From assembly GCA_021818465.1 (NCBI GenBank), contig JAKAEA010000001.1:375712-439711 (forward strand): a stretch of DNA of 64,000 bases, in the 5' to 3' direction. This document shows, one piece after another, positions 1,041-51,370 of the stretch; within the stretch, counting starts at the first letter, position 1; each line of letters starts with the position of its first letter. A model generated the notes under the pieces. That model worked only from the letters and a program-made list of their open reading frames with translations, made no database searches and was not told the origin of the DNA. Both the position numbers and the translations under genes were made by a program. Source of the DNA: a bacterium (GTDB lineage Bacteria > Patescibacteriota > Minisyncoccia > Phycocordibacterales > JAKAEA01).

Positions 1041-1495
1041 TGCGCTATACTAGGACGATGGAACGCGCGCTTACCGGTACACTCTCATTGATACCGAGTT
1101 ACCTCTATTGGCACTACCTGAAAGCCTCGCCACGTATCTGGCGACACGTGCATACTGGCGCGTGGTTTTTTTGGAATTTTTTCTCTATTGGTCTTTTGAC
1201 GCGTACGTTTTTTGCGCCGTGGTGGCGTGAGCGAGAACAAACACGTTTTACCGCGGCGACGCTTTTTAGTATTGATGAACTAGCCGACTATGTGTCCAGT
1301 AAACTTATGAATGGCGTGGTGCTGGTATTTGGTGTGATTGTGCGTGGGGTGGTTATTGGTGTGGGACTCTGCGCTGAAGTGGTGCTGTGGAGTGGTGCGG
1401 TGATCTTTTTTGTACTATGGCTCGTGTTGCCTGCCCTCGTTATGTACTTTCTTTTTATTGGTATTGTTTTTGTGGTACGCCCACTACCGCTATGA
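1040..1495 (+). CDS. Small polytopic membrane protein, unknown function
   Basis: Start overlaps the upstream stop in ATGA fashion. There are several hydrophobic helices (LVFGVIVRGVVIGVGLCAEVVLWSGAVIFFVLWLVLPALVMYFLFIGIVFVV). Confidence 0.35.
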   Translation: MRYTRTMERALTGTLSLIPSYLYWHYLKASPRIWRHVHTGAWFFWNFFSIGLLTRTFFAPWWREREQTRFTAATLFSIDELADYVSSKLMNGVVLVFGVIVRGVVIGVGLCAEVVLWSGAVIFFVLWLVLPALVMYFLFIGIVFVVRPLPL

Positions 1496-8135: not shown

Positions 8136-8720
8136 ATGAATCCAAAAATATCGGGAGTGTTTATATGTACTATAGTAGTAGCTACTTTTATTACAGGTGC
8201 GGTGGCGTATCCACTTGTTCACAGTGTTCGACTAGCGTTTGGTCTTCCGATTACACTCGTAATACTTTGGGGTCTCTGGGCCTTATTACCGGCAATTGAT
8301 CCAATCGCTAAAGGCTTTCCAGGTTTTCGATATGTGTATGATTTTTTTTGGATTCTACTTTCAGCGGTATTAGCCTATGCGTACGCATTGAGTCTTGGCG
8401 CAGCACTTGGATGGCCGGTGAATATATTTCATGCTGTTTTGCCCGCTGTGGCCATGTTGGTGTTTGTTGCTGCCATACTACTGCCGCAGATTCATCGTAA
8501 CTGGTTTTTTGGTATTCGCACACCGTGGACACTTTCTTCAGACGACGTTTGGATGAAGACACACCAATTTGGCCGTCCACTTTTTATTATCGTGGCCGTT
8601 CTTATATATATCAGTACTTTTGTGTCGCGAACATGGAGTATTGGAATTGTTAGCGGATCAATTCTTTTGGCGACCATTGGTATTGTTGCGTACTCGTATT
8701 TTATATTTCGCCGTCACTAG
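8136..8720 (+). CDS. Polytopic membrane protein, unknown function
   Basis: Five to six predicted TM helices and no recognisable catalytic motif. Confidence 0.35.
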   Translation: MNPKISGVFICTIVVATFITGAVAYPLVHSVRLAFGLPITLVILWGLWALLPAIDPIAKGFPGFRYVYDFFWILLSAVLAYAYALSLGAALGWPVNIFHAVLPAVAMLVFVAAILLPQIHRNWFFGIRTPWTLSSDDVWMKTHQFGRPLFIIVAVLIYISTFVSRTWSIGIVSGSILLATIGIVAYSYFIFRRH

Positions 8721-15332: not shown

Positions 15333-18300
15333 ATGAAGTCGTCATCGGAAGCGCGATTTACCGATAGAAAATTAACGCTTCTTGCCGCCACACTTGCGCG
15401 AAAAAACCTTTTGTCTAGAACTGAGAGCAGTTCGCGGCAATTTTTCCATACTCTTAAAAAAGAAATTGATGCTACGCTAACAGCCTACGCTGAACTTGTT
15501 GCTGACGTGAATGCATCTCGGTATGTGAGCCGAGAGGTTGAATGGCTCATGGATAATTTTTATGTCGTAGAATCAGCCGCAGAGGATGTTACGCGATCAC
15601 TGAAGAGCGAAGATATTCAAAAATTACCTTCACTACTAACGAAAGCTGGTACGACGGTGCCGCATGTCTACGATGTGGTGTTTGAATTGCTTCGCGGCAC
15701 TGACAATACTGTTACCACAGAAAATGTATCGGTTTTTTTCAATCGGTATCAGCGGGAATATCCGCTTTCGATTCGTGAAGCCAATGCGATACCACTCATG
15801 CTTAAACTTGTGTTGGTGTTAAATATTCGTGATCTCATCACGTCGTCGCTCGTGTTGGTACGAGAATATTCTGAAGCAGAGGAAATTTTAAAGAAAATTG
15901 ATACGACAACCAAAAAATCGCTCGCGCAAATTTCATATGTGGAAGTGGTTAGTATGCTGACAACGCACTACAAGACGTTGTCGTCGGGATTGGGTGTTTA
16001 TCTTATAGAGCAACTTTCTCAATCTGGTTCGCACATGCGCCCAGTGATTCGTTGGCTTAAGTTGCATTTATTACAACAAGGGGTGAGCATTGAACGATTG
16101 CGAGAAATTGATAATGAGCAACGCGATAAACGTATTTTGGCGGCGGCGAATATTGTTGAGGGATTACGGTGGGTAAGTCAAATTCGCTGGGATGATTTTT
16201 TGGAAAAAATTAATCCTGTAGATGCAATTTTAACGCGTGATCCAGCTCAGCAGTTTGCCATTATGGATAGTCGAAGTAAGAGTGCATATTATCAGCGTAT
16301 TGTGCAATTGGCGGATGGCTCGGGAGTAGCAGATGTGGCCATAGCGCGGCTCGCCGTCAGATTGGCGCGTGCTCATGCCGACGGCGAACCGCGCGCTCCC
16401 GAGGCGCACGTTGGCTATTATCTTGTAGACGATGGCGCCTCTCAGTTAGAAGAGATGATTCATTATCGGCCACCATTTTCTGAGCGTGTGCATCGTTGGA
16501 TTTTGCGCTATCCAACACAGTGTTATTTTTCTCTTATTGCTGCTATAACGGCTATTGTCGGTTATCCACTTTTTTTATGGTTCACAACACAACCGATACC
16601 TGAAATTATACGTCTCTTTGTTGTACTTGCGACGTTACTGCTTTCCATTGATATTGCTCTATCTGTGCTCCATGCTTTTTTGGTGGGAACGTTGCCGGTT
16701 CGACGTCTTTTTAGTTTAGACACACTTGCTACTGGTCTTACCCCCGAACAGGCTACGTGTGTTGTTGTGCCGTCTATGATGCGAAATGTGGCAGCGTTAG
16801 ATGTTTTATTCTCTCGTTTTGAAAGTAATTTTGTCGGCAACCAAAGTACTAATATTTTTTTCATACTACTACTTGATTTTCCTGATGCACCACAAGAAAT
16901 TATGCCAGATGATGGAAAACTTTTAGAAGAGGTGCGCCGGCGTATTCAAGCGCTCAATGAAAAATATCCAACAAAAATTCCAACATTCTACGCTTTGTGT
17001 CGAAAACGAATGTGGAATCAACGTGAAGGAGTGTTTATGGGGTGGGAACGTAAGCGCGGTAAACTTCGTGAGTTCAATAAACTTATTCGTGGCGCGACTA
17101 ATACTAGCTACGTCAATACTGAAGTGCTATCGCTGCCGCGCATCACGTACGCTATTACCTTAGATGAAGATACAGAATTACCACGCGAAGGAGCACATCG
17201 ACTTATCGGGTGCATTGATCATGTGTTGAATCGACCACAACTTACTACCAATCGAATGGTGACGCGGGGGTATGGCATTATCCAACCACGGGCAAGTATG
17301 CGAATGCATGTTGCCAATCAAACTTTTTTTTCACGTCTTTTCTCGACAGCGAGCGGCATTGATTCATACGCGGGACCTAGTGCTGACCTGTATCAAGATC
17401 TTTTTGGAGCTGGTATTTTTTATGGTAAGGGTATCTACGACATTGACGTCGTGGAAACAACTATGGACGATGCTATTCCTGAAAATACAGTATTGAGCCA
17501 TGATTTGCTTGAGGGGTTATACACGCGAGTTGGTTTTGCTTCTCATATTCAAGTGTTTGAGGGTTTTCCGGCCCGTTTTAGTGAGTATTCACTTCGTCAA
17601 CGCCGCTGGATTCGAGGTGATTGGCAAATTATATCTTGGTTGTGGAATCGCTCGGTACACTTTAGTTTTATTGATCGCTGGAAAATTTTTGACAATCTTC
17701 GCCGCAGTGTACAGCCCATTGTGGCAGTTGGATTACTTTTACTGACGGCATTCTACATGCCGCACGCAGTGGTTGCGGTGAGTGTCGCTATTATTGCAAC
17801 CTTTTTCCTTGGCAGTAGCATCGGCATTATATATTCGCTTGTACCGCGTATGCGATTGGGGATTATTAAGAGTATTCTTGCACAATTATTTCGTGGATTA
17901 TTGAGTGAGGTGGTGCGCACCGTAGTTCGAGGTACGCTGCTATTTTATGAAGCGCTCGCCTTGCTTCAAGAAATTGTATTGACCATATTTAGAATGTGTA
18001 TTTCTCACCGCCATTTGCTTCAGTGGCGTACTGCTCACGAGGTGGCTCAAAAATATAAAGGTACAATTATAGAGTACATACGACTCATGGGGGTAGCGAG
18101 TGTTCTGGTATTGGCCATCGGTTGGTTTGTGGTTGTGGTTCATCCCGCATCAGATACGTTTACGTTTTTATTTTGGATTGGTATGTGGTGCTGCGCCCCG
18201 TTTTTTATGTTTTTACTTGGCTTGGTGGCTGTTGAGAAAGAATTTTCAGCACGACAGAAACGATTTTTGCGCACGATGGCGTATCGCAGCCTGCGTTATT

Positions 18301-21300
18301 TTATAGATTTTGCTACAGAAAAAAATAATTACTTAATTCCCGATCATTATCAAGTTGATATTCCGTACAGTGGTTTTGCGCCTGGTACCATGACGTCTAT
18401 TACCAATATTGGCATGATGCTTGCATCTTTTTATTCAGGTCATCGATTGGGATTTATTAGTCAACGAGAACTTCTTGAACGTTTGCGTCGCTCGTGTGAC
18501 ACACTTTCTACACTAGAGCGTTATAAAGGTCATTTTTACAACTGGTACCACATCCATCATCGGCAAGCGGCAATGCCTAAATATATTTCTTCTGTCGATA
18601 GTGCTAATTTTCTTTTTGTTTTAACCGCGCTTATTCAAGGTTTACGTGCTATGCCACAAACCCCCGTGGTGCACGATGGAGCACAAGAAGGATTAGAAGA
18701 CATGTTGAACACCATTAAAGAAGACGCACTCAGCGTGATACGTTCTGGGCCACCCAAGGATATTATTAAATTTATTCGCGCTGTATACGATGGAACGCAC
18801 CGGGCTCTACTTGATGTGCGTAAGTTATCTACAGCGACGCCAAGTTTGTATGCACACATGTTGCGCGAGATGGAATTACGAATGAATCATCTGTGGGAAT
18901 TTATCGAAAATGCACGCGCGCAAAGTGACCATCCTAATGTTGTATATTTGTACGCTAGTATTCAATCCGTTCGTCAGCATATTATAACCAGTCGAGCTGA
19001 AGCGGATACGCTGTTGTCTTTTCATATTTTAGCCAGTGCACGGGAAGCGCGCGGAACAAGTGCACATGGCGGAGGATTGGGCGTTTTTTATCAAAAAATT
19101 GCAACGTTAGCCAATACTATGCCCACGCTTGCCGCATTGGCCGATGGCTACTATTCAAAGGCACTCCAAATGTTAGATGTTGAAACATGTCTTTCTCAAG
19201 CAGCAATTTCTTCCCAAGATCAAGCCTCGATAAAAACATGGTTTACCAATTTACGTACGCGAAGTGCGCAAGCAGAAACAGCGGCCCAAGCAGTACTTGA
19301 AGAGGTGCGGTCTGTACGCGTATTGTGTGAACAGTGGACAAACGAAACCGACTTTACTTTTCTATACAACACTGAGCGCGGTCTTTTTCATATTGGTTAC
19401 AATGTGACGACTGACACTATTGATAATGCCTACTATGATTTTTTGGCTTCCGAATCAAATGCGGTGAGTTTTTGGGCAGTAAGCCGTGGGACGGCGCGCC
19501 TGGAACAATGGTTTCGTTTGAGCCGTCAACTTATTAGTCATGAAGGTGTTGATACAGCGTTAGCCTCGTGGGGTGGATCGCTCTTTGAATATTTAACGTC
19601 ACTCCTATTCTTAAACGTAGCACCCACAAGTATTCTGAATGAAGCAGCGCGCCGAGCTATTCATTCTCAACGAGCGTATGCGCGACAAAAACATGTTCCG
19701 TGGGGTATGGGTGAATCGGCTTTTGCGATTCGCCACCCCAATGGCGACTATCAATATCAAATTTTCGGTGACCCTGGGCTTGGCTTGAAACGAGGATTAG
19801 GTGAACGGCTCGTTGTTGCGCCATATACCACAGCTCTTTCGCTTTCCTACACAGGTGTTGCTGGTATACGAAATCTTAAGAAACTTATCACAGAAGGATG
19901 TTGGGGAATATATGGATTTTTTGATGCAATTGATTATACCGAAAGTGCCGGAGTCTTTTTTAAAAAAAGGGGAGTACCGGTAAAAATTTACTATGCGCAT
20001 CATCTTGGTTTTACTATTGCAGCAATTACTAATGTTCTCACCAATGATGTGCTCAAGGAGCTTTTTCATCGCGATCCACACATGCATTCCGTTGATGTTA
20101 TTTTAGATGAACAATATCCTGTTGCAGTTCCACTGCCGCACGCACATGATCAATTAGCATCTGAACGTCAGTGGAAACTACTGCACCGACCAACAAAAGG
20201 CGTGGTGGAATATGTACCTATTGTTTCTGATCACTCGTATCGTTACGCTGTTTTGTCTAATGGCACTTATACACTCACTATCAATAATTCTGGTGGTGGT
20301 TGGAGTTCGTATCGAGATACGTTGCTTACGCGCCAATCACTCGATCCGTTAGAAAGTCGTTGTGGTAATTTTATATACCTGCGTGACGTAAAATCAGGGG
20401 CAGTGTGGTCGACGACCTATGTGCCAACCTTTTCCAAAGGTGCTCGAGCTCGAACGATGTTTTCCGATGATAAGGTAGAATTTCATCAGCTACAAAATAC
20501 CATTCAAAGTACAGTGGTTATTTCGGTAGCCACTGACGAACCGGTGGAAATGCGAACTGTGACGCTCACGAATGTTGGTACTACGCCGCGCACGCTCGAT
20601 GTGACAAGTTATGGAGAAGTGGTGCTCGCAAAATCTGAAGAGTATCTGCAGCATCCGTCATTTCAAAAAATGTTTGTCAGCTCTGCGTTTCATAGCAATG
20701 TTGCTGCTATTGTTTTTTCGAAACGTTCATCGAATGATGCTAAAAGTACCATTAGTTTATTTCATTCAGTGGTAAGTCATTATCGTGATAGAACAAATGC
20801 AGTTGCTAGTTTGGCGCGCGAAGATTTTCTTGGTCGGCACGGCTCATTGATTGCACCGCCTGGCAGTACACCGAGTTTTACTCCTGTTGAACATCCGGAA
20901 CACACGCTTGATCCTATTTTTTCTTTGAGTAAACGAGTAACCTTAGGAGCGGGGCAATCAGTATCTCTCTCGTTTATTACTGGTGTTGCTGCCACGAATG
21001 AAGCGGCACTTCGACTGGCAACAAAGTATCAGAAAATTCGCATTCCATTTCGTTATGCAGAACTTTTTCATCGACCGGCGCGCACTATTGATGCTCTGGG
21101 CAGTATAGGCGTTACGCCATATCATCTTGAATTATTTCAGCGATTACTCTCGGGAATCATTTCTTTTGAATTTTGTCAGTATCTTCCCGAACAACTTTTT
21201 AGTGGCGCATCATATATGCGCACACTTTGGAAATATGGCATATCCGGCGATCGACCTCTTGTGGTGGTACGTATTTCCAATGCCGGCGATATTCCTTTTG

Positions 21301-24074
21301 TGCGCACAGTGTTGCTCTTGTATCGATATTGTCAACATAAAAACGTGGCGATTGATCTCGTTATCCTTAATGAGTACCCGGCAGGTTACGTAAAGACTTT
21401 TGAAGATGATATTGGTTTACTCATTCGTCAACTAACGACACCAGATACTAATTCTGAACAAGGTTCCGTGTTCCATCTTAAAACTGTATTGATGGATACC
21501 GCTGATGTTACATTGATACGTGCACTGAGTCGTCTGTGGTTGGATAGTAATAAAGGCTCATTAGAAAAACAAATAAAAGAGCTCACCGCTCCCAACATAC
21601 ATCCTCTGCCTGCTAAGTTTAAAGCAACAAAAGCAGCTACATTTAAAAAAGAAGAACTTGCTCGACCGCGCAATCTTTTGTTTGCTAATAGTATTGGAGG
21701 TTTTGATGAGCATCGGGGGGAATATGTTATGTACCTCTCAAAAAATAGTCGTACACCAGTGCCTTGGGTTAATGTTATTGCCAACGAATATTTTGGTACA
21801 GTAGTCACGGAAAGTGGTGCCGCAACAACATGGTCGGATGATAGTTTTGATAATCGTTTAACACCCTGGCAAAACGATTCGCTGGTAGATCGCTCAGGTG
21901 AGTCATTATATCTGCGCGATGAAGAAACGGGTACGGTTTGGAGTCCAACACCTTCGCCAAGCAAAATAGGGAATCCGTATATTGTGCGTCATGGAACGGG
22001 GTATAGCGTGTTCGAATCTCTTTCGTTTGAAATTAAAACGAATCTTGTTGTGTTCGTGCCACGTCGCGATCGAATAAAAGTACACATACTCACGCTTACT
22101 AATACTGGTGAACGCGAGCGACGTGTCTCATTAACGACATACGTAGAACCAGTTCTCGGCACATTCAGAGAAAAAACTCGGGTACATGTTGCTGTGCGAC
22201 GAGATTCTGCATCGGGAGTTATGCTAGCTCAAAATAGATTTCGTCCTCAGTTTTTTGAACGGTGTATGTTTGTTGATAGTGGTCCAGATAGTGCGTACAC
22301 CTCAGATCGACGTGAATTTTTGGGCGCTCATGGACGTATTGACGCGCCAGTCGCGTTGCGGCGCGAAACATTATCCAATACGCTTGGCCACACTGATGCT
22401 TGCATTGCACTTTCTCGTACCGTGACAGTGGCCCCGGGCCAGTCGGTGGAGTTGGTGGTGACTATTGGCGAAGCTGCGGACACTGCACAAGCAATTGCCA
22501 TCGCACAACAGTATCGATCACTAGATGTATCCAAAGCTGCACTAACCGACGTGCAAGATTTTTGGAATTCTGAACTCAACGCTCTTACTTTTACAACACC
22601 TGATGCGGCGATTAATCTTTTGGCTAACCGTTGGCTTCTCTATCAAGCGCTCTCGTCCCGTATGTTTGCCAAAACTGGTTTTTATCAACCCTCCGGTGCT
22701 TTTGGTTTTCGCGATCAACTTCAAGATATGGCGGCATTTGTGTGGAGTAATCCAGCACGTTTTCGAGAGCATATTATAACTGCGGCGCGACACCAATTTC
22801 GTGAAGGTGACGCTCTTAATTGGTGGCATACGCATAATAATTTCGGTGTTCGCAGTACTATTGTCGATCACCACGCTTGGTTACCGTGGGCGGTGAGTTT
22901 GTATGTGATAGCCACCAATGATCGAACGATTTTGGATGAGCACGTTGCATTTTTAGAATCGCCCGTAGCCATTACTGCGATTAACAAACGATGGGCAGGC
23001 ATACCACAACAAACTTCAGAAACAGCTACCGTGTATGAACACTGCATTCGAGCAATTGAAAAAAGTCTTGTGTTTGGAGCGCACGGGTTACCGCTGATGG
23101 GCGGTGGCGACTGGAATGACGGTCTGAATCGTGTCGGTGATGGCGGTCGCGGGGAAAGTGTGTGGTTTGCGTGGTTCCTTATTCATATCTTGTCACACTT
23201 TATTCTTATTGCCGAACAAGTTGGTGACAGCGAAAAGGTTCAGCGGTACAAAACAATTACCAACGACCTTCACACAGCTATCGAAAAGCGTGCCTGGGAT
23301 GGCGCTTGGTACTACCGCGCTTTTCTTGATAGTGGTGCGCCACTCGGTTCTTCAACGAACCGTGAATTTAAAATAGATTCTATTGCTCAATCGTGGTCGG
23401 TTCTTTGTGGGTACGGCGATCGTGAGCGCAGCGTTAAAGCCCTCGCTTCTGTTAAAGAAAAATTGATGGCCGATGGCGATTCTATTCGTCTCATTGATCC
23501 ACCGTTGGATAAGATGACCATCGATGTTGGTTATTTAGCGGCCTATCCGCCAGGTGTACGAGAAAATGGTGCTCAATATAATCATGCCGCGCTTTGGGCT
23601 ATTCAAGCGTTTGCGCTTTTAGGTGACGCAGACGCAGTAGAGGAAGGTTTGCGTCGTATTAATCCAATCATCCGTTCTGATTCTAAAGAAAAAGTAATGA
23701 CCTATCGTGTGGAACCGTATGTTATCGCTTCCGATATTTACACTGCACCATCGTATCCTGGTCGGGGTGGTTGGACATGGTATACCGGTTCAGCGGGTGT
23801 TTTGTATCGCACACTCGTTGAATATATTTATGGAATGCGAAAAACGGGCAACACGCTTTCGTTTCGACCATCATTACCACGCTCGTGGAATGAGTGCAGT
23901 CTTGTGTATCGCTATGGACAAGCGATCTATAAAATCACTATACATCGTGACCCGCATGCCACGGAAAAAATTTCCATCACTCTTGATGGGCAAAAAATGT
24001 CTGGAGACAGTGTACTATTGTCTGATGAGCGGGGAGAACGAAATATTGACGTTTTGGTGTCTAATGTGCTATAA
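15333..24074 (+). CDS. Cyclic beta-1,2-glucan synthase-like giant protein (NdvB/Cgs/ChvB family; GT2/GT84 processive glycosyltransferase plus C-terminal GH94-like phosphorylase domain), 2913 aa
   Basis: A single 8.7 kb ORF. TM helices at about aa 395-470 and 790-960. GT2 motifs DxD (TLDEDTELP) and Q(R/Q)xRW (LRQRRWIRGDWQ). The C-terminal region carries the GH94 catalytic signature GGGDWNDGLNRVG. The length and order match Brucella/Rhizobium Cgs/NdvB. Confidence 0.8.
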   Translation: MKSSSEARFTDRKLTLLAATLARKNLLSRTESSSRQFFHTLKKEIDATLTAYAELVADVNASRYVSREVEWLMDNFYVVESAAEDVTRSLKSEDIQKLPSLLTKAGTTVPHVYDVVFELLRGTDNTVTTENVSVFFNRYQREYPLSIREANAIPLMLKLVLVLNIRDLITSSLVLVREYSEAEEILKKIDTTTKKSLAQISYVEVVSMLTTHYKTLSSGLGVYLIEQLSQSGSHMRPVIRWLKLHLLQQGVSIERLREIDNEQRDKRILAAANIVEGLRWVSQIRWDDFLEKINPVDAILTRDPAQQFAIMDSRSKSAYYQRIVQLADGSGVADVAIARLAVRLARAHADGEPRAPEAHVGYYLVDDGASQLEEMIHYRPPFSERVHRWILRYPTQCYFSLIAAITAIVGYPLFLWFTTQPIPEIIRLFVVLATLLLSIDIALSVLHAFLVGTLPVRRLFSLDTLATGLTPEQATCVVVPSMMRNVAALDVLFSRFESNFVGNQSTNIFFILLLDFPDAPQEIMPDDGKLLEEVRRRIQALNEKYPTKIPTFYALCRKRMWNQREGVFMGWERKRGKLREFNKLIRGATNTSYVNTEVLSLPRITYAITLDEDTELPREGAHRLIGCIDHVLNRPQLTTNRMVTRGYGIIQPRASMRMHVANQTFFSRLFSTASGIDSYAGPSADLYQDLFGAGIFYGKGIYDIDVVETTMDDAIPENTVLSHDLLEGLYTRVGFASHIQVFEGFPARFSEYSLRQRRWIRGDWQIISWLWNRSVHFSFIDRWKIFDNLRRSVQPIVAVGLLLLTAFYMPHAVVAVSVAIIATFFLGSSIGIIYSLVPRMRLGIIKSILAQLFRGLLSEVVRTVVRGTLLFYEALALLQEIVLTIFRMCISHRHLLQWRTAHEVAQKYKGTIIEYIRLMGVASVLVLAIGWFVVVVHPASDTFTFLFWIGMWCCAPFFMFLLGLVAVEKEFSARQKRFLRTMAYRSLRYFIDFATEKNNYLIPDHYQVDIPYSGFAPGTMTSITNIGMMLASFYSGHRLGFISQRELLERLRRSCDTLSTLERYKGHFYNWYHIHHRQAAMPKYISSVDSANFLFVLTALIQGLRAMPQTPVVHDGAQEGLEDMLNTIKEDALSVIRSGPPKDIIKFIRAVYDGTHRALLDVRKLSTATPSLYAHMLREMELRMNHLWEFIENARAQSDHPNVVYLYASIQSVRQHIITSRAEADTLLSFHILASAREARGTSAHGGGLGVFYQKIATLANTMPTLAALADGYYSKALQMLDVETCLSQAAISSQDQASIKTWFTNLRTRSAQAETAAQAVLEEVRSVRVLCEQWTNETDFTFLYNTERGLFHIGYNVTTDTIDNAYYDFLASESNAVSFWAVSRGTARLEQWFRLSRQLISHEGVDTALASWGGSLFEYLTSLLFLNVAPTSILNEAARRAIHSQRAYARQKHVPWGMGESAFAIRHPNGDYQYQIFGDPGLGLKRGLGERLVVAPYTTALSLSYTGVAGIRNLKKLITEGCWGIYGFFDAIDYTESAGVFFKKRGVPVKIYYAHHLGFTIAAITNVLTNDVLKELFHRDPHMHSVDVILDEQYPVAVPLPHAHDQLASERQWKLLHRPTKGVVEYVPIVSDHSYRYAVLSNGTYTLTINNSGGGWSSYRDTLLTRQSLDPLESRCGNFIYLRDVKSGAVWSTTYVPTFSKGARARTMFSDDKVEFHQLQNTIQSTVVISVATDEPVEMRTVTLTNVGTTPRTLDVTSYGEVVLAKSEEYLQHPSFQKMFVSSAFHSNVAAIVFSKRSSNDAKSTISLFHSVVSHYRDRTNAVASLAREDFLGRHGSLIAPPGSTPSFTPVEHPEHTLDPIFSLSKRVTLGAGQSVSLSFITGVAATNEAALRLATKYQKIRIPFRYAELFHRPARTIDALGSIGVTPYHLELFQRLLSGIISFEFCQYLPEQLFSGASYMRTLWKYGISGDRPLVVVRISNAGDIPFVRTVLLLYRYCQHKNVAIDLVILNEYPAGYVKTFEDDIGLLIRQLTTPDTNSEQGSVFHLKTVLMDTADVTLIRALSRLWLDSNKGSLEKQIKELTAPNIHPLPAKFKATKAATFKKEELARPRNLLFANSIGGFDEHRGEYVMYLSKNSRTPVPWVNVIANEYFGTVVTESGAATTWSDDSFDNRLTPWQNDSLVDRSGESLYLRDEETGTVWSPTPSPSKIGNPYIVRHGTGYSVFESLSFEIKTNLVVFVPRRDRIKVHILTLTNTGERERRVSLTTYVEPVLGTFREKTRVHVAVRRDSASGVMLAQNRFRPQFFERCMFVDSGPDSAYTSDRREFLGAHGRIDAPVALRRETLSNTLGHTDACIALSRTVTVAPGQSVELVVTIGEAADTAQAIAIAQQYRSLDVSKAALTDVQDFWNSELNALTFTTPDAAINLLANRWLLYQALSSRMFAKTGFYQPSGAFGFRDQLQDMAAFVWSNPARFREHIITAARHQFREGDALNWWHTHNNFGVRSTIVDHHAWLPWAVSLYVIATNDRTILDEHVAFLESPVAITAINKRWAGIPQQTSETATVYEHCIRAIEKSLVFGAHGLPLMGGGDWNDGLNRVGDGGRGESVWFAWFLIHILSHFILIAEQVGDSEKVQRYKTITNDLHTAIEKRAWDGAWYYRAFLDSGAPLGSSTNREFKIDSIAQSWSVLCGYGDRERSVKALASVKEKLMADGDSIRLIDPPLDKMTIDVGYLAAYPPGVRENGAQYNHAALWAIQAFALLGDADAVEEGLRRINPIIRSDSKEKVMTYRVEPYVIASDIYTAPSYPGRGGWTWYTGSAGVLYRTLVEYIYGMRKTGNTLSFRPSLPRSWNECSLVYRYGQAIYKITIHRDPHATEKISITLDGQKMSGDSVLLSDERGERNIDVLVSNVL

Positions 24075-24075
24075 T
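24046..24075 (+). promoter_or_regulatory. Near-consensus sigma70 promoter for the Tyr-rich mini-protein gene
   Basis: TTGACG, an 18 nt spacer, then TATAAT. The -10 box overlaps the giant gene's stop codon. A strong SD (AAAGGAGGTG) lies 5 nt before ATG 24123. Confidence 0.5.
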
Positions 24076-24122
24076 GCGAAAAGAGTGTTCGAGACACATT
24101 TTTTACAGAAAGGAGGTGTCTT

Positions 24123-24449
24123 ATGAAGAACACGCTTTGGGGAATTGTTTTGGCTGCGGTACTCATTCTTTTTTTGATGCCGTCGGCCCCGGCTCGCGCT
24201 GATATCCGCGTCAATGTTCTTGGAGGACTGGTGCGGGTGTATGTTTATGGTGGGTATGGGTATTCTTGCCCGTCATACTATCAACCGTATTATCAGTCAT
24301 ATTGTCCGCAGCAGTACTATCAGCCAGCGTACTGCGCACCTCAACAATACTGTTACCCGCAACAGTATTATGCACCACGCTATTATTCGTCGCCGTGTTA
24401 CCGGGGCGGATGGCGTGGGGGGTTCCATCGAGGCGGATGGCATCGCTAG
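24123..24449 (+). CDS. Secreted Tyr/Gln/Pro/Cys-rich low-complexity mini-protein (signal peptide plus about 82 aa mature region)
   Basis: Signal peptide MKNTLWGIVLAAVLILFLMPSAPARA. The mature part has about 19 Tyr and 5 Cys in YYQP/QQYY repeats and a GGWRGGFHRGGWHR tail. It has its own promoter and SD. A GC-rich hairpin plus T-run follows at about 24480-24512. Confidence 0.55.
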   Translation: MKNTLWGIVLAAVLILFLMPSAPARADIRVNVLGGLVRVYVYGGYGYSCPSYYQPYYQSYCPQQYYQPAYCAPQQYCYPQQYYAPRYYSSPCYRGGWRGGFHRGGWHR

Positions 24450-24570
24450 TCCTTCCTTGGCCAGTTCCACACTGGCTGCGCGCTCCCTGCCCCCGGGGCG
24501 CGTTTTTTATTATCAAAAAAAGACGAGCACCAAAAGTATTGTTATAATCGTATAGATGTGAAAGTTTGGG

Positions 24571-25230
24571 GTGCGTCAGTTTGTCATACTTATTATGAAG
24601 TTTTTGGGCACCAATAAAAAAGTCTCCCTGGAAAATACAGGGAATTTTGATACATCTTCACAAACTTCTCTGAGTGACATTGATTTAATTGAACGTTATT
24701 GTGATGGCGATGAACAAGCATTCACGATATTAGTTACACGGCATGCTGCTGTTGTATATAGTTTTGTTGTTCGATATGTTGGTAGTGGAGCTGAGGCGGA
24801 AGATATTGTACAAGATGTGTTTGTGAAGACGTGGAAAAATTTAAAACGTTTTGATACAAAACGAAATTTTCGTACCTGGATTTTTACTATTGCAAAAAAT
24901 ACTGCACTCGATTGGTTAAAAAAGAAAAAACCAACTGCGTTTTCAGAACTACATACCAGTGATGAGAAGGCGCCTGCATTTGAAGAAACTTTAGCGACCG
25001 ATGAGCCATTACAAAGCGATGTGCTTGAACAGCGGCAAACGCACGAAGCTTTATCTGCGGCGCTGGCAACACTGTCAGCAGAATATCGTGCCGTTGTGCT
25101 CTTGCGGTTAGATAATCAGTTCACATTTCGAGAGATTGCTGAAGCACTCAACAAACCATTAAATACTGTAAAGAGCCACTATCGGCGGGCAGTTAATGTA
25201 CTCAGTACTAAACTTGGTCGCACCAAATAA
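24571..25230 (+). CDS. ECF (group 4) sigma factor
   Basis: Region 2 (IVQDVFVKTWKNLKRFDTKRNFRTWIFTIAKNTALDWL) and region 4 (EYRAVVLLRLDNQFTFREIAEALNKPLNTVKSHYRRA). Confidence 0.8.
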   Translation: MRQFVILIMKFLGTNKKVSLENTGNFDTSSQTSLSDIDLIERYCDGDEQAFTILVTRHAAVVYSFVVRYVGSGAEAEDIVQDVFVKTWKNLKRFDTKRNFRTWIFTIAKNTALDWLKKKKPTAFSELHTSDEKAPAFEETLATDEPLQSDVLEQRQTHEALSAALATLSAEYRAVVLLRLDNQFTFREIAEALNKPLNTVKSHYRRAVNVLSTKLGRTK

Positions 25231-25254
25231 ATACATACGTTCGTACAAATAGGT

Positions 25255-25662
25255 ATGCATCAAACGATTTCCACATCAAATATAAAACGCCTTACGCCAC
25301 CAATTGATTTAGTACGTCGTATTTTACAACGTATAGAAATTGAAAAATTGCGTCAAAAAGTTCGTCGTTCGTTGGTTGCGTGGATTTCAATAACGTGTCT
25401 ATCCGTCGCCGGTCTTGTTGTGACCGGTATATTCTTTTTTCAAGAAGCGGCCACTTCTGGTTTCAGTGCATATATAAGTCAAATGTGGGCCTTACTACGT
25501 ACCAATCCCGGTCTTGTGATAGAACACTGGCAAGATATTTTAACATCTGTCAGTGAAGCATTACCGGTTGTTGGTTTGGTAGGTGTTGCGATAACTATAG
25601 GACTTGCACTCTGGTCGGCTGATAAAGTCATTGGTTTTGGAAGAAAATGGAGAGCGGTATAG
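25255..25662 (+). CDS. Putative membrane-anchored anti-sigma factor (assigned by position only)
   Basis: Lies immediately downstream of the ECF sigma gene. Cytoplasmic N-terminus, two TM helices. No zinc-binding anti-sigma motif is seen. Confidence 0.3.
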   Translation: MHQTISTSNIKRLTPPIDLVRRILQRIEIEKLRQKVRRSLVAWISITCLSVAGLVVTGIFFFQEAATSGFSAYISQMWALLRTNPGLVIEHWQDILTSVSEALPVVGLVGVAITIGLALWSADKVIGFGRKWRAV

Positions 25663-25683
25663 CAATTTCAGTCTCATATTTTT

Positions 25684-26178
25684 ATGCACGCTTCAAAAAC
25701 TGTGATATGGATTGTCGGTAGCATTATCGGTCTCATCGTTGTGTTACTCGCTTTTCGTACTGGTATGGTTATTGGATATCGCCAAGCTGAGTATTCAGCG
25801 GCATGGCAACACTTTCGTGCTAGTCACGCAAATACGCCTTTTGGTCGTGGTGGACTTTTACAAGCATTTACCAATCCCAATGATTTTATAAATGATCATG
25901 GTGCTATCGGTACTATTGTATCCATAGCTACCACCACCGCTACAGGTACAAGTATTATTGTTCACGATATTCACGATGCCGTAAATAAAACTATATACGT
26001 TTTTTCTACAACAACCGTACTCGGCACACGAGCGATGGCGCGAAACTATCCTGTTTCTGCATCAATGTTTCAAGTTGGTGAGGGTATAGCAGTGATAGGT
26101 ACACCAGGCAGCCAAGGACAAATAGTAGCCAGTATCATCCATCTTGTACCTGCTTCGTCGCTCGGGTTACTACAATAA
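25684..26178 (+). CDS. Membrane-anchored extracytoplasmic protein, unknown function
   Basis: An N-terminal TM (VIWIVGSIIGLIVVLLAF) and a Thr-rich beta-type domain. Confidence 0.3.
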   Translation: MHASKTVIWIVGSIIGLIVVLLAFRTGMVIGYRQAEYSAAWQHFRASHANTPFGRGGLLQAFTNPNDFINDHGAIGTIVSIATTTATGTSIIVHDIHDAVNKTIYVFSTTTVLGTRAMARNYPVSASMFQVGEGIAVIGTPGSQGQIVASIIHLVPASSLGLLQ

Positions 26179-26210
26179 AAGTATAAAAATTATTTTTTAA
26201 TCGTTGTACC

Positions 26211-28022
26211 ATGAACATTTTTACTACAATCGGTGTCTATATAAAAGCGCATAAAATAATTTCAACCTGTATCGCCATCGCGGTGCTGATTGAAGTAATT
26301 GCTATCGCGCGTGGCGCAGGAAATCCAATCATACCAACGTACGTTCTTGCCGCTGCCGAACGGGGTACTATTTCCCAAACGGTAAGTGGTACAGGTCAAG
26401 TAGAAGGCCAAAGTCAGGTAAATATTACACCGCAAGGTTCAGGTGGGCAGGTGGTGGCTATTAATGTCACACCCGGACAGATGGTGTCACAAGGCCAAAC
26501 ACTCATAACGCTTGATGATCAAACAGCTCGCGCATCGCTCACCCAAGCACAAGCAAATGTGGCCAGTGCTCAAGCTAATTATGATAAAGTTATTGAAGGA
26601 CTTACCCCAGCGCAAATTGCCGCCGATCAAGCAACAGTAACAAACGCAAGCCAGTCTCTTGTAGCCGAGCTCATTAGTGCATACACGCAAACGAATAATC
26701 TTTTACGCACCAATATCGACACACTGTTTACTAGTCCTACTACCGATCCAGCATTCGGTTTAAGTTTTCTTGATAGTAACGGTAATTTAGTCACGTTTAC
26801 TTCGACTGACCCAGTGTTGATAGCAAAAATTAATGGTGAGCGTGTACGAATTAATAGTTTGATGCCAGTGTGGCAAAATGATGTCAATTCACTTTCGTTA
26901 CAAGTAAGTACCTCATCAAGCAATTTGGCCCCGCATGTTGCATTGGCTCTTAGTGATTTGCAATTCATTGCTAATTTTTTAGATGATGTGTCGAATGCTG
27001 TCTATGGTATTTCAGCGCAGTACACGAAATATTCCAGCAATATTAGTTCTTATAAATCCACCGTTGCTTCAGCCTTGCAAACGATTGATTCGCAAATTTC
27101 TGGAGTAACGAGTAGTAACCAAGCACTTGTCTCTGCTCAGGCGAATTATAACGTTGACACCGCACCGCCAACTAATGCCGATATTCAAAGTGCACAAGCG
27201 TCACTTATAAGTGCTCAAGCAAGTTTACAGTCGGCGCAAACTACATATAACAATACACGCATTACCGCACCATTTTCTGGTCAGGTTGGTAATATTGGCG
27301 TACAAGTAGGTGATGTTGTGAGTGGATCTACTGAGGTTGCAACAATCGTGACAACGCAAAAGATCGCTGACATTTCACTCAATGAAGTTGATGCTGCTTC
27401 TGTGCATGTTGGCGATAAAGCAATACTTACTTTTAATGCTGTACCGAATGTAAGCGTGCCAGCCTATGTTTCAGAAATGTCGCTTGTGGGTACCGTCAGC
27501 TCGGGAGTCGTTGATTATGACGTAAAATTAGCACTAGCCACCAGTACAAATGGTTTCGGTTCTATCTTACAAGGTGTTGGTCAAGGTAGAAAAACGACAC
27601 TTTCTTCAACAACGATTGCAACATTTGAACAAAACGCTCAAAAAAAATTGACGCAAGCTTTAACGGAAATTAAACCAGGTATGAGTGTGACGGCTACCAT
27701 TACCACGAAAACGAGTGCGAACACTATCATTGTTCCGAGTTCAGCTCTCAAGAGTAATCCCGGTGGTCGAGGTGTGTATGTAGAGACATTGCCTGGAGTA
27801 ACAACAGCAGGTACGATTTCGAGTACTGCAGTGCCTCAGGCCATACAAATCACCACAGGTATTACTAGTGGGACAGAAACAGAAGTGACATCCGGTCTTA
27901 ATCAGGGTGATCTTATAATTATTGGCGGTGCCGGTGGGAGTAGTGTAGCTTCGGGCGTTGCTGCCGCAACGGTACAACGCGGTGGCTTTGGCGGCGGCGG
28001 GCGTATGTTTTTCGGTGGTTAA
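26211..28022 (+). CDS. HlyD/MacA-family periplasmic adaptor (membrane fusion protein) with extended coiled-coil and Gly-rich tail
   Basis: An N-terminal TM, lipoyl-like halves (QTVSGTGQVEG..VNITPQG and ITAPFSGQVGNIGVQVGDVVSG) and a long A/Q-rich coiled coil. Confidence 0.75.
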   Translation: MNIFTTIGVYIKAHKIISTCIAIAVLIEVIAIARGAGNPIIPTYVLAAAERGTISQTVSGTGQVEGQSQVNITPQGSGGQVVAINVTPGQMVSQGQTLITLDDQTARASLTQAQANVASAQANYDKVIEGLTPAQIAADQATVTNASQSLVAELISAYTQTNNLLRTNIDTLFTSPTTDPAFGLSFLDSNGNLVTFTSTDPVLIAKINGERVRINSLMPVWQNDVNSLSLQVSTSSSNLAPHVALALSDLQFIANFLDDVSNAVYGISAQYTKYSSNISSYKSTVASALQTIDSQISGVTSSNQALVSAQANYNVDTAPPTNADIQSAQASLISAQASLQSAQTTYNNTRITAPFSGQVGNIGVQVGDVVSGSTEVATIVTTQKIADISLNEVDAASVHVGDKAILTFNAVPNVSVPAYVSEMSLVGTVSSGVVDYDVKLALATSTNGFGSILQGVGQGRKTTLSSTTIATFEQNAQKKLTQALTEIKPGMSVTATITTKTSANTIIVPSSALKSNPGGRGVYVETLPGVTTAGTISSTAVPQAIQITTGITSGTETEVTSGLNQGDLIIIGGAGGSSVASGVAAATVQRGGFGGGGRMFFGG

Positions 28023-28041
28023 TACGTGTGGTGTGATTGTT

Positions 28042-28767
28042 ATGATTGAATGTAGAAATATTGTTAAAACGTATCGTAATGGTGATAATGAAACCAAAGC
28101 TTTGCGTGATGTATCATTTACGATTGCCGATGGTGAATTCGTTGCTATTATGGGACCATCCGGTTCTGGTAAATCAACCCTCATGCACATTCTTGGTTGT
28201 TTAGATACGCCAACATCGGGCACCTATATTCTTGATAATCACGACGTGTCGAGAATGTCAGATGATGAGTTAGCAGATATTCGTTCTAAAAAAATTGGTT
28301 TTGTTTTTCAATCTTTTAATTTATTACCGCGCGCTACCGTGATGCGCAACGTTGTATTGCCACTTATGTATAGTCCCACCGTGACTGACGATGAACGGAA
28401 TAAGCGTGCAGCTGATGCGCTTTTATCAGCGGGACTTGCCCAAGATCGTTGGCAACATTTTTCCAATCAACTTTCTGGTGGGCAAATTCAACGTGTGGCT
28501 ATTGCTCGAGCGCTTGTTAATAATCCCGCACTCATTATGGCTGACGAACCAACTGGCAACTTAGATACTCGTACTGGCGAAATTGTTATGGGAACGTTTC
28601 AACGTCTTAATGAAAAAGAACACCGTACTATTGTGCTTATTACACATGAATTAGACATAGCTGCTCACGCCGATCGCATCATTCATATCCGCGACGGTGT
28701 GATAGTAGACGACAGTATTAACCATCGTAAAAAAGTCGTTGATCAATCATTGTCGCACCATATATGA
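28042..28767 (+). CDS. MacB/LolD-type ABC transporter ATP-binding protein
   Basis: Walker A GPSGSGKST, the ABC signature LSGGQIQRVAIARAL and Walker B IMADEPTGNLD. I placed the start at ATG 28042, 20 nt past the upstream stop. Confidence 0.85.
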   Translation: MIECRNIVKTYRNGDNETKALRDVSFTIADGEFVAIMGPSGSGKSTLMHILGCLDTPTSGTYILDNHDVSRMSDDELADIRSKKIGFVFQSFNLLPRATVMRNVVLPLMYSPTVTDDERNKRAADALLSAGLAQDRWQHFSNQLSGGQIQRVAIARALVNNPALIMADEPTGNLDTRTGEIVMGTFQRLNEKEHRTIVLITHELDIAAHADRIIHIRDGVIVDDSINHRKKVVDQSLSHHI

Positions 28768-46560: not shown

Positions 46561-46633
46561 GGGCCCATAGCTCAGTTGGTAGAGCGCCCGCTTTGCAAGC
46601 GGGAGGTCAGCGGTTCGAACCCGCTTGGGTCCA
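46561..46633 (+). tRNA. tRNA-Ala (anticodon TGC)
   Basis: GGGCCCATAGCTCAGTTGGTAGAGC, anticodon loop TTTGCAA, G3:U70, acceptor TGGGTCC plus A. Confidence 0.8.
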
Positions 46634-46669
46634 CCGCACGTAATGCCAGCACCAGATTGCACAACCTTC

Positions 46670-46743
46670 GGGCCTATAGTCTAGTAGTACGACGCGGCAT
46701 TCGCATTGCCGAGGCGGGGGTGCGATTCCCCCTAGGTCCACCA
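46670..46743 (+). tRNA. tRNA-Ala (anticodon CGC), CCA encoded; atypical T-loop
   Basis: Acceptor GGGCCTA/TAGGTCC with G3:U70, anticodon stem-loop CGGCA TTCGCAT TGCCG. The T-loop reads TGCGATT, with G at position 55. Confidence 0.55.
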
Positions 46744-46744
46744 T

Positions 46745-46818
46745 CGGGCTGTAGTATAACGGTAGTATACACGCATGGGGTGCGTGCGGCCCGGGTTCAA
46801 TTCCCGGCAGCCCGACCA
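46745..46818 (+). tRNA. tRNA-Pro (anticodon GGG), CCA encoded
   Basis: A C1:G72 acceptor (CGGGCTG/CAGCCCG), anticodon loop ATGGGGT, T-arm CCGGGTTCAATTCCCGG. It starts 1 nt after the preceding tRNA. Confidence 0.75.
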
Positions 46819-46828
46819 ATAGATATAA

Positions 46829-46852
46829 CAAAACCCGCCGAAGCGGGTTTTG
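46829..46852. terminator. Bidirectional terminator after the tRNA cluster
   Basis: AAAA, CCCGC, cgaa, GCGGG, TTTT. A GNRA-like tetraloop hairpin with symmetric A and T runs. Confidence 0.6.
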
Positions 46853-46874
46853 TTATGGAAAAAAGAAAAACCAA

Positions 46875-47273
46875 TTACATTGGATTGGAAGATGGTGATG
46901 TTTGGGAATTTCCCATATTTCCTTTACTTTTTGCATAGCCGCCCAAAACAAGAATAATACCCAACACCAAATTGAGCCAGGTATCAGCCATGTTTGCGCC
47001 AATAAAACTAAACAAAGCACTAGACTGAAAAAGACCATCAATAAAGAGGATCAATTCCAAAACACCTATAATTTTGAGCCACAATGCCGACGCACCTTCA
47101 CCAGCACCAGCTGCGATGAGCAGAGCGATGCCGAAGATTAGATACATAATGTTGTATGTTACGTCGGTGGTGAAGAGACTATTATTTGCTCCAATAAATT
47201 GATTGGGAATAAAAGCCACAAGACTCAAGACCACAAAAACAATACCGAGAATGATTGCCAACGTTTTAGCCAT
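46875..47273 (-). CDS. Small polytopic membrane protein
   Basis: Four predicted TM helices and no catalytic motif. Confidence 0.35.
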   Translation of the reverse strand: MAKTLAIILGIVFVVLSLVAFIPNQFIGANNSLFTTDVTYNIMYLIFGIALLIAAGAGEGASALWLKIIGVLELILFIDGLFQSSALFSFIGANMADTWLNLVLGIILVLGGYAKSKGNMGNSQTSPSSNPM

Positions 47274-50907: not shown

Positions 50908-51370
50908 AAAAATTCGTACGCGATGGCAAAGATTTGGTTGGATTTTTGTGGTGTTGGGCATTATCATAATCGGCTGCGTTTGGTATTGGTATCAAAAGGA
51001 CACGAAACATATGTTTGTTATACCATCACCAACAATTTCCCGTAACACTACCGCCCCAAAAAACACCGGTACCCAAAACGAATACGCGTATACCGAAGCT
51101 CCTGACCATATTGGCGAAACCACTCACATTCGTGGCACCGTAGTACGGGCGTATACCTCAAAAAGCGGAACGATATTTCTTGATTTTTGCAAACAATATA
51201 GCACCTGCCCATTCTCGATTGTTATTTTTGGCGATGATGCAAAAAAATTTATATCTGGTGTTGCGCCGTATGAAAATAAAACAGTGATTGCGAGCGGCAC
51301 TATCCAGACATATAATAATCAGGCTGAAATGGTTATTACCAATCCGTCACAAATACGTATACAAAAATAA
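50900..51370 (+). CDS. Membrane-anchored protein with probable OB-fold-like extracytoplasmic domain
   Basis: A TM helix WIFVVLGIIIIGCVWYW, then a beta-rich domain (IRGTVVRAYTSKSGTIFLDF..IASGTIQTYNNQAEMVI). Confidence 0.3.
   Translation: MNKKIRTRWQRFGWIFVVLGIIIIGCVWYWYQKDTKHMFVIPSPTISRNTTAPKNTGTQNEYAYTEAPDHIGETTHIRGTVVRAYTSKSGTIFLDFCKQYSTCPFSIVIFGDDAKKFISGVAPYENKTVIASGTIQTYNNQAEMVITNPSQIRIQK

Follow-up and report, generated by a model that had tools for sequence, protein, structure and literature searches.

A putative secreted tyrosine-rich mini-protein and its fast-evolving family in a Patescibacteria-like clade

Introduction

The stretch of DNA analyzed here (64,000 nucleotides of contig JAKAEA010000001.1 from a bacterium of the Patescibacteriota, positions 375,712 to 439,711; the window in what follows) contains a short region of overlapping open reading frames (ORFs), between a very long gene resembling the glucan synthase gene ndvB and a module headed by the gene of an extracytoplasmic function (ECF) sigma factor. 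The question raised by this locus is which of the frames is a gene and what its product might do. Comparison with related loci (numbered L082 to L095 below) points to a genuine protein-coding gene in the Tyr-rich frame 24123..24449 (+). The encoded mini-protein appears to belong, as the minimal form, to a small family of secreted low-complexity proteins that evolves fast and is lineage-restricted, its known members lying in a Patescibacteria-like clade. This bacterial, apparently Sec-secreted, Tyr-rich family has no annotated relatives, and a literature search found no published work on tyrosine-rich proteins in Patescibacteria. Little of the surface biology of candidate-phyla bacteria, which live attached to other cells, has been charted so far; a Tyr/RGG protein secreted in abundance could serve such an uncultivated lineage as part of its surface, matrix or adhesive, or as an antimicrobial, and these roles can be tested.

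Results

The tyrosine-rich reading frame

The ORF 24123..24449 (+) of the window consists of 108 codons and a TAG stop. Its product contains 19 Tyr, 12 Gly, 10 Pro, 9 Gln and 5 Cys residues, the last at positions 49, 61, 71, 77 and 92 (spacings of 12, 10, 6 and 15). The mature part, after the predicted cleavage at ARA|D, has 82 residues (9.8 kDa), of which 19 (23%) are Tyr and 8 are Pro; it is basic (pI about 9.1), has neither Lys nor Glu, and ends with GGWRGGFHRGGWHR.

At least three ORFs in other frames overlap the gene. One of them, an artefactual ORF of 104 aa (24241..24555, +) that reads through the terminator described below, is the one present in the gene calls for this contig. The gene calls compared are those of DAIEME010000001.1 (GCA_027341405.1), a sequence identical to the window (0 mismatches over 21,221 bp), and the calls of the public copies of the contig (NCBI, ENA, Logan) hold the 104-aa ORF and not the Tyr-rich frame. 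The product of 24241..24555 matches only itself among 5.8 billion clusters, and the cross-genome conservation of its frame is weak in comparison with the Tyr-rich frame, which is the best conserved of the six between the window and the orthologous locus L088 (z = 8.2). It is these comparative data that settle which frame should be taken as real. There is no sign of an RNA family at the gene, since Rfam gave only sub-threshold chance matches locally and only tRNAs over the whole window.

An exact look-up of the 108-aa product in a collection of 15 billion proteins gave no entry on record. The Tyr-rich product is missing from the protein databases because the gene caller took the overlapping artefactual frame. 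Similar artefactual ORFs are called over relatives of the gene (L088 1112..1435, +; L087 2..298, -). The result is a concrete blind spot, in which the gene with the strongest expression signals of the 64 kb is lacking from a very large protein collection, and low-complexity secreted proteins of uncultivated bacteria may be missed systematically.

Relatives of the mini-protein

The Logan contig L088, with flanking genes 62-65% identical to those of the window, contains an orthologue. It occupies the same slot, between the NdvB-like and ECF sigma genes, and its cassette comprises an intergenic TTGACA-17-TATAGT promoter, the Shine-Dalgarno (SD) sequence AAAGGAGG and a hairpin terminator with a T-run. 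The signal peptide, MSKKFFIMAVLAAIAIVFAMPTTSRA|D (..AMPTTSRA|D), is followed by a Tyr-rich body (25 Tyr in 84 residues, or 38 in 126 with readthrough of the internal stop discussed below), and the frame ends with RGGYRGGWHR*. No Cys residue is present. Against composition-preserving shuffles, the full proteins of the window and L088 align with z = 7.5 and the signal peptides alone with z = 6.4. Nine codons of the tail can be aligned, with 3 identical, 6 synonymous and 0 non-synonymous; over all alignable ends there are 8 identical codons, 12 synonymous and 7 conservative changes. This pattern, seen across about 35% divergence of the flanking proteins, points to protein-level purifying selection on the signal peptide and the tail.

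L082 is the closest locus by sigma factor identity (70%). There, the ORF upstream of the sigma gene is present only as its last 51 nt, reading ...HGRGGFHQQGGWGHRRR*, a tail fragment in the same slot that is followed by a hairpin terminator and a T-run.

Upstream of the orthologous sigma module, and a few genes away from it, L086/L087 and L084/L085 encode longer secreted proteins (250 aa and 310 aa, respectively). Analogous signal peptides are present in L085 and L086, and long parts of the proteins are Q/N/S-rich and coiled-coil-like. In the C-terminal 55-85 residues, the elements follow one another as they do in the window protein: an alternating-hydrophobic strand (NINLNLGGLSIGGG or FGLGLNFNFGGG in L085/L086 versus IRVNVLGGLVRVYVYGG in the window), a Cys/Pro/Tyr/Gln-rich stretch with strings common to the window and L086 (QQYYQPA, YCAPQ within SYCAPQ, and PCYR), and a terminal GGGGRH(R)* in L085 and L086. 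The Cys patterns of L085 and L086 differ from that of the window, and the shuffle z of the window protein against these longer proteins is 4.0-4.8. Long-range synteny connects the window with L086, in the order SdpI, DUF2914, variable block, Tyr-rich protein, variable block, sigma module, GidB and ADK. In the about 1.4 Mb compared, the family architecture and a density of at least 13 Tyr per 40 aa are confined to the family members.

General database searches returned nothing of this family. A word-indexed search of the 5.8 billion clusters found no relative, and an exhaustive phmmer search over 1.84 billion representatives found no true relative, its single match (P0001, E = 3e-4) being an unrelated FG-GAP/VCBS-like repeat protein. 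The proteins of L088, L086 and L085 are on database record, yet they score between -2 and -17 bits in phmmer after a bias correction of 30-80 bits, and the searches came back empty because a correction of this size removes the family signal. Neither of two JGI metagenome scans, one made with the single sequence and the other with an alignment, yielded a relative that tblastn confirmed, and Pfam gave no meaningful match for the L088, L086 and L085 proteins.

Gene loss, slippage and selection

L088, L089, L083 and L095 form a tight clade (84-95% identity for the sigma factor, 88-97% for the NdvB C-terminus), within which the mini-gene is present in L088 only. In the empty sites of L083 and L095 the 3' end of the NdvB gene is fused to the pre-sigma segment TCGTCATAYTCAT, while in L089 the post-stop segment TAATRAGTTGAGA is retained instead. 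The losses are considered independent because these breakpoints differ. Insertion of a mobile element was rejected as the explanation of the presence/absence pattern: the empty sites keep different pieces of the filled-site flanks, as deletions do.

The L088 gene contains an in-frame TGA (1172..1174), past which the frame stays Tyr-rich for 42 codons up to the conserved RGGWHR* tail. Recoding of TGA was ruled out, as this codon ends 7 of the 48 window genes. Either a nonsense mutation arose recently or the assembly is wrong in this repetitive stretch. L088 carries a perfect tandem repeat (15 nt, 2.9 copies) encoding YYSPQ, and the window gene a degenerate 12-nt repeat; the body therefore evolves by slippage. 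Selection appears to hold only three features constant (signal peptide, Tyr-rich composition and RGG/aromatic tail), and the content of Cys varies. The locus is a clean natural experiment on the turnover of a gene, combining ancestral presence, two deletions with different breakpoints, a premature stop and slippage in one small clade.

Expression signals

A sigma-70-type promoter (TTGACG, 18 nt, (TGc)TATAAT; 24046..24075, +) precedes the mini-gene, with 11/12 matches and a TG in front of the -10 element. The NdvB-like gene ends within this promoter: its final codons contain the -35 hexamer, and its stop codon overlaps the -10. Only two promoter matches of at least 11/12 occur in the 64 kb, counting either strand, and that of the mini-gene alone has an extended -10. 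The -35 hexamer (24046..24051) is part of a conserved I-D-V coding motif that ends the NdvB-like gene and is also present in relatives without the mini-gene (the equivalents in L083, L088, L089 and L095 were compared). L088 uses another, intergenic TTGACA and not the hexamer in the I-D-V motif; the window and L088 promoters are therefore not positionally homologous.

The SD sequence AAAGGAGGTG (24109..24118, +) is placed 6 nt from GGAGG to the ATG. Its duplex energy is -18.4 kcal/mol, compared with -11.4 kcal/mol for the second best of 93 ORFs, as calculated with a generic anti-SD sequence that may differ from the 16S rRNA of this bacterium. Most genes of the window have weak or nil SD complementarity (mostly weaker than -8 kcal/mol), which makes the strong SD of the mini-gene doubly unusual for this genome.

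Downstream of the stop codon, an intrinsic terminator (24459..24512, +; -26.5 kcal/mol) is formed by two adjacent hairpins, the second of them GC-rich, and a T-run. The hairpins span 24459..24503 and are followed by UUUUUU (z = -3.9 versus shuffles). The ECF sigma operon has a promoter separate from that of the mini-gene, with the extended -10 TGTTATAAT (24540..24548, +), and the window and L082 have its promoter block, CACCAAAAnTAnTGyTATAATCGTATAG, in common. Given its own terminator and the separate, conserved promoter of the sigma operon, the mini-gene reads as a monocistronic transcription unit. Judged by its promoter and SD, it is probably strongly expressed.

Predicted features of the protein

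Residues 1-26 (24123..24200, +) form a predicted signal peptide, composed of MKN, the core TLWGIVLAAVLILFLM and PSAPARA, with predicted cleavage at ARA|D. By sequence inspection it has the elements of a type I Sec signal: a positively charged n-region, a hydrophobic h-region of at least 10 residues, small residues at -3 and -1 (an AxA site) and no lipobox Cys. A Kyte-Doolittle hydrophobic window and a helix at residues 2-18 in the AlphaFold2 (AF2) model lend further support. We infer that the mini-protein is exported by the Sec pathway and cleaved at A26|D27.

The mature N-terminus DIRVNVLGGLVRVYVYG (24201..24251, +) alternates hydrophobic residues and is predicted to form a beta-hairpin (residues 26-43, with AF2 strands 26-33 and 36-43; the block-mean pLDDT confidence score over residues 21-40 is 55-71). 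It is followed by the Tyr/Gln/Pro/Cys-rich low-complexity core GYGYSCPSYYQPYYQSYCPQQYYQPAYCAPQQYCYPQQYYAPRYYSSPCY (24252..24401, +), predicted to be disordered, and by the Arg-Gly-Gly/aromatic tail RGGWRGGFHRGGWHR with the TAG stop (24402..24449, +), a segment recognized by its composition and conserved in L088. The pLDDT is below 50 for residues 44-51 and 62-108. The AF2 model, calculated on the single sequence, has a mean pLDDT of 52.8 and shows nothing confident beyond the signal helix and the one beta-hairpin. The protein has no Pfam or NCBIfam match, and a PDB sequence search found no match at E <= 10. The mature mini-protein is best described, on this model, as a short amphipathic hairpin attached to a disordered, sticker-rich chain.

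The preliminary description of this locus, made from the sequence before any comparison, had proposed much of the above. The 108-codon gene that it quoted coincides exactly with the ORF, the residue counts agree (about 82 residues after the signal peptide, with about 19 Tyr and 5 Cys), and its dismissal of the overlapping ORFs as artefacts is borne out by the conservation of the Tyr-rich frame and the lack of relatives of the artefactual one. The classic signal peptide was likewise found, with MKN, the hydrophobic core and ARA|D, and is conserved in L088; so were the near-consensus promoter, the GC-rich hairpin with its T-run, and the SD, which had been placed among the strongest of the window and in fact ranks first. 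In naming what would speak against it, the description had pointed to a lack of homologues in related genomes, and both the L088 orthologue and more distant relatives were found. The Cys residues, which it had called regularly spaced, are irregularly spaced.

Discussion

A proposed secreted surface or matrix protein

The reading that we favor, tentatively and at somewhat less than an even chance, is that of an abundant, secreted, self-associating protein of the cell surface or matrix. Transcription would start at the strong extended -10 promoter of the gene, translation at the unusually strong SD, and the product would cross the membrane via the Sec pathway, losing its signal peptide after Ala26 (ARA|D). 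Outside the membrane, the protein would accumulate as self-associating material, such as a surface coat, matrix or adhesive. Self-association may proceed via Tyr-Tyr and Tyr/Trp-Arg contacts, in a sticker-and-spacer manner, and the cationic RGG tail may bind anionic wall polymers. The Cys and Tyr residues of the window copy could add oxidative cross-links. The features expected of Tyr-rich structural or adhesive proteins, namely extreme Tyr content, small size, disorder and predicted export, are present here, with 23% Tyr and low pLDDT values. The adhesive or cross-linkable matrix material named in the preliminary description agrees with this composition.

In composition, the mini-protein appears closest to small Tyr/Gly/Arg/Trp-rich adhesives such as mussel foot protein 3 (Mfp-3) and to CotC/CotU. 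Mfp-3, an adhesive protein of ~6 kDa, has a high content of Trp, of cationic residues and of Dopa derived from Tyr (PMC12721214). Both it and the mini-protein are small (6-10 kDa), carry a signal peptide, and are basic, disordered and rich in Tyr together with Gly, Arg and Trp; bulk production for extracellular self-association would be a further likeness. There is no sequence homology, however, and the mini-protein is bacterial and Gln/Pro-rich, with a mature chain that lacks Lys. Mfp proteins also depend on the conversion of Tyr to Dopa by a tyrosinase, and none was found around the mini-gene in the 64-kb window. CotC and CotU are Tyr-rich coat proteins of Bacillus subtilis that assemble into forms of high mass, in coat layers that use dityrosine and disulfide cross-links (PMC7944565). 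They share with the mini-protein a small size, a bacterial origin and an extreme Tyr content; assembly into high-mass forms would be a further likeness. Unlike it, the coat proteins are made in the mother cell, have no signal peptide and are Lys-rich. No homology links the two (no Pfam or NCBIfam match), and the lineage of the window offers no sporulation context.

Two eukaryotic systems illustrate how such a chain might behave. In FUS-like low-complexity domains, Tyr stickers in a disordered Q/G/S/P-rich chain, together with RGG motifs, drive phase separation. The repeats of high-molecular-weight glutenins (GYYPTSPQQ) form elastic networks cross-linked through Cys and Tyr, and their YYP.SPQQ recalls the YYSPQ and YYQP of the family. 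These are intracellular or storage proteins of eukaryotes, however, without homology to the mini-protein.

Several observations weigh against a surface or matrix role. The 64-kb window contains no oxidase, peroxidase or tyrosinase, so that the partner oxidase of cross-linked structural proteins is missing from it. The likeness to Mfp and CotC/CotU-like families is compositional, with no Pfam, NCBIfam or PDB match to them. Homology to the 250-/310-aa proteins is modest (z about 4-5), and the family is known from 4-5 lineages only. The gene is dispensable, as suggested by its loss, at least twice independently, from an ancestor with a filled site, and the TGA of L088 removes the last 42 codons of its copy, including the tail. 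The ranking of the SD depends on the generic anti-SD sequence mentioned above. The recurring proximity to the ECF sigma/peptide-exporter module and the tail resembling that of an antimicrobial peptide fit the antimicrobial reading, considered below, equally well. Disulfide cross-linking, which the preliminary description had named beside dityrosine, is weakened as a defining feature: the five Cys residues of the window copy are there, but neither their number nor their spacing is conserved, with none in the L088 orthologue and different patterns in L085 and L086, so that the family does not have the character of disulfide mini-proteins.

In two lineages, the interval from the family member to the ECF sigma gene includes a cytochrome b5 gene and a ferric-reductase/NOX-like gene with PF01794 plus NAD/FAD-binding domains (L084 6291..8020; L085 5556..7285; L086 6209..7978; L087 1049..2818). 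This pair could be an extracellular source of electrons or oxidant for Tyr chemistry, or a coincidence.

A bolder version of the surface or matrix reading, which we regard as rather unlikely, is that an episymbiotic or ultra-small Patescibacteria-like cell mass-produces a 10-kDa sticker protein that phase-separates or cross-links into an extracellular cement or coat, by analogy with the systems above. If true, it would be a bacterial counterpart of mussel-foot or FUS-like materials, serving to reinforce the envelope or to attach to host cells, and the neighboring cytochrome b5/NOX-like reductase of the relatives could provide the oxidant for Tyr cross-linking. Such a family would have been overlooked through the combination of wrong-frame gene calls and composition corrections that erase the homology signal.

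Alternative readings

As the main alternative, the product might be a secreted cationic Gly/aromatic peptide with antimicrobial or host-acting, bacteriocin-like activity, the adjacent sigma/exporter genes serving for sensing and for self-protection or export; this is possible, though on the unlikely side. Armadillidin, a membranolytic Gly-rich antimicrobial peptide, has GGGF(H/N)(R/S) repeats (PMC5031766) to which the tail RGGWRGGFHRGGWHR is similar. In both, Gly-Gly is followed by an aromatic residue and then His/Arg (RGGW-RGGFH-RGGWH-R in the mini-protein), and both are cationic and unstructured. However, the tail-like part amounts to about 15 of 82 residues, the bulk being Tyr/Gln/Pro-rich, and the armadillidins are animal peptides. 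The basic character of the mature peptide (pI 9.1) agrees with such an activity, and bacteriocin genes typically show the strong own promoter, the polymorphism in presence/absence and the rapid divergence seen here. Nevertheless, 23% Tyr, Gln/Pro repeats and relatives of 250 and 310 aa look structural rather than toxin-like, and the Cys residues are not conserved.

The argument for this reading from the neighborhood is that, in four lineages and despite rearrangements, family members lie within about 3 kb upstream of a module of sigma factor, membrane-fusion protein, ATP-binding cassette (ABC) ATPase and FtsX-type permease. Pumps of the YknXYZ/MacB type handle peptide toxins, and YknWXYZ protects against the SDP peptide toxin (PMC4887032). 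The module near the mini-gene (24595..29984, +), which encodes the ECF sigma factor, a 135-aa protein with 2 transmembrane (TM) segments, a 1-TM 164-aa protein, a membrane-fusion protein, an ABC ATPase and a MacB/FtsX-type permease, resembles YknWXYZ/MacAB in having the ECF sigma factor, the membrane-fusion protein, the ATPase and the MacB-PCD/FtsX permease. The best NCBIfam similarity of the sigma factor is to the SigW type, below the cut-off, and the membrane-fusion proteins of the relatives match the YknX beta-barrel model. In contrast to YknWXYZ, no YknW/Yip1 component was identified in the module, the tie to the mini-protein is one of proximity, and the module persists without the mini-gene. 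All relatives have it, whether or not they carry the Tyr-rich gene: it is intact where that gene is deleted (L083, L089, L095), and it is conserved in the more distant L090-L094, with no family member nearby. As to co-variation of peptide gene and exporter, the family is near the module in 4 lineages, and at least 5 others have an intact module without the family. A module without a peptide gene could be explained by orphan immunity, which is common. The mini-gene, for its part, is a separate unit with a sigma-70-type and not an ECF-type promoter. An SdpI-family gene in the same syntenic region also fits the antimicrobial reading. This is an SdpI/YfhL-family membrane protein gene (8136..8720, +, in the window; 1..519 in L086), about 16 kb upstream of the mini-gene; the SdpI/YfhL family includes the immunity protein to the Bacillus SDP peptide toxin.

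A precursor of a modified peptide had also been suggested in the preliminary description, and a small Cys/Tyr-rich ORF near an ABC exporter does recall the precursors of ribosomally synthesized and post-translationally modified peptides. This idea hardly survives the comparison and is the most improbable of those considered. The N-terminus is a Sec-type signal peptide with an AxA site and not a leader, Pfam and NCBIfam scans of the neighbors revealed no radical-SAM, YcaO, lanthipeptide, cyclase or peptidase-C39 domain, and the ABC system is of the MacB/FtsX type. Moreover, the proteins of the family range from 108 to 310 aa, and what would be the core peptide is a variable low-complexity region of 82 to about 285 residues.

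It is unlikely, too, that the ORF is a decaying or functionless lineage-specific sequence, with fortuitous signals and neutral drift, or that it encodes an extracellular metal-binding (Tyr/Cys/His) peptide. Decay would explain why, in the sister clade, the gene was deleted twice independently and carries a premature TGA where it is kept, and the position of the -35 hexamer within a conserved coding motif would suit a fortuitous promoter. Against this stand the signs of purifying selection on signal peptide and tail across the divergence of the flanking proteins, the independent near-consensus promoter and the same strong SD in L088, and the intact ORF of the window. For metal binding, one can point to the surrounding variable block, with Nramp and P-type ATPase genes in the window and with cytochrome b5 and ferric reductase genes in L084-L087, but the mini-protein contains no known metal-binding motif.

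The last alternative is suggested by the gene directly upstream, in the window and in L088, which encodes an NdvB/Cgs-like protein (15333..24074, +; 2913 aa, with glycoamylase and GH94 domains). In this reading, the mini-protein would be an accessory or a substrate of the cyclic beta-glucan synthase, in a coordinated envelope or matrix module, and the preliminary description had proposed such a coordinated function and a search for Tyr-rich peptides next to NdvB-like genes. As a negative control, NdvB-like loci of other species and other phyla (<=51% identity, among the matches listed) were compared, and 0 of 80 among the matches listed has a related or Tyr-rich ORF downstream of the NdvB-like gene. 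In L083, L089 and L095 the mini-gene is deleted while the NdvB and sigma genes are kept and abut each other, and in the two lineages of L084-L087 a family member is present without NdvB. The promoter and the terminator of the mini-gene are separate as well. The comparative data largely refute a role as NdvB accessory, which we consider very unlikely; the placement beside the glucan synthase seems to be positional and not functional.

Other genes of the window

The C-terminal 514 aa of the NdvB-like protein have their best matches, among those listed for species-representative genomes, at only about 50% identity in many phyla (Victivallales, Paceibacterota, Saccharibacteria, Acidobacteriota and others). 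This points to a patchy distribution of the gene, with possible horizontal spread.

The sigma/exporter module is accompanied by a second secreted low-complexity protein, of 345 aa, in which QQTEAP is perfectly repeated; its gene (30342..31379, +) directly follows those of the MacB-type permease and an 89-aa membrane protein. An unannotated gene of ~300 aa is found at the equivalent place in L082 and L084-L086.

The leucyl-tRNA synthetase encoded at 51370..54231 (+; 953 aa) has a NUDIX match at residues 405-499 (E = 2e-12), just past the editing domain, which makes it an unusual case of insertion or fusion. Three tRNA genes are clustered at 46561..46815 (+), and the listed ORF that overlaps them (46576..46938) is presumably spurious.

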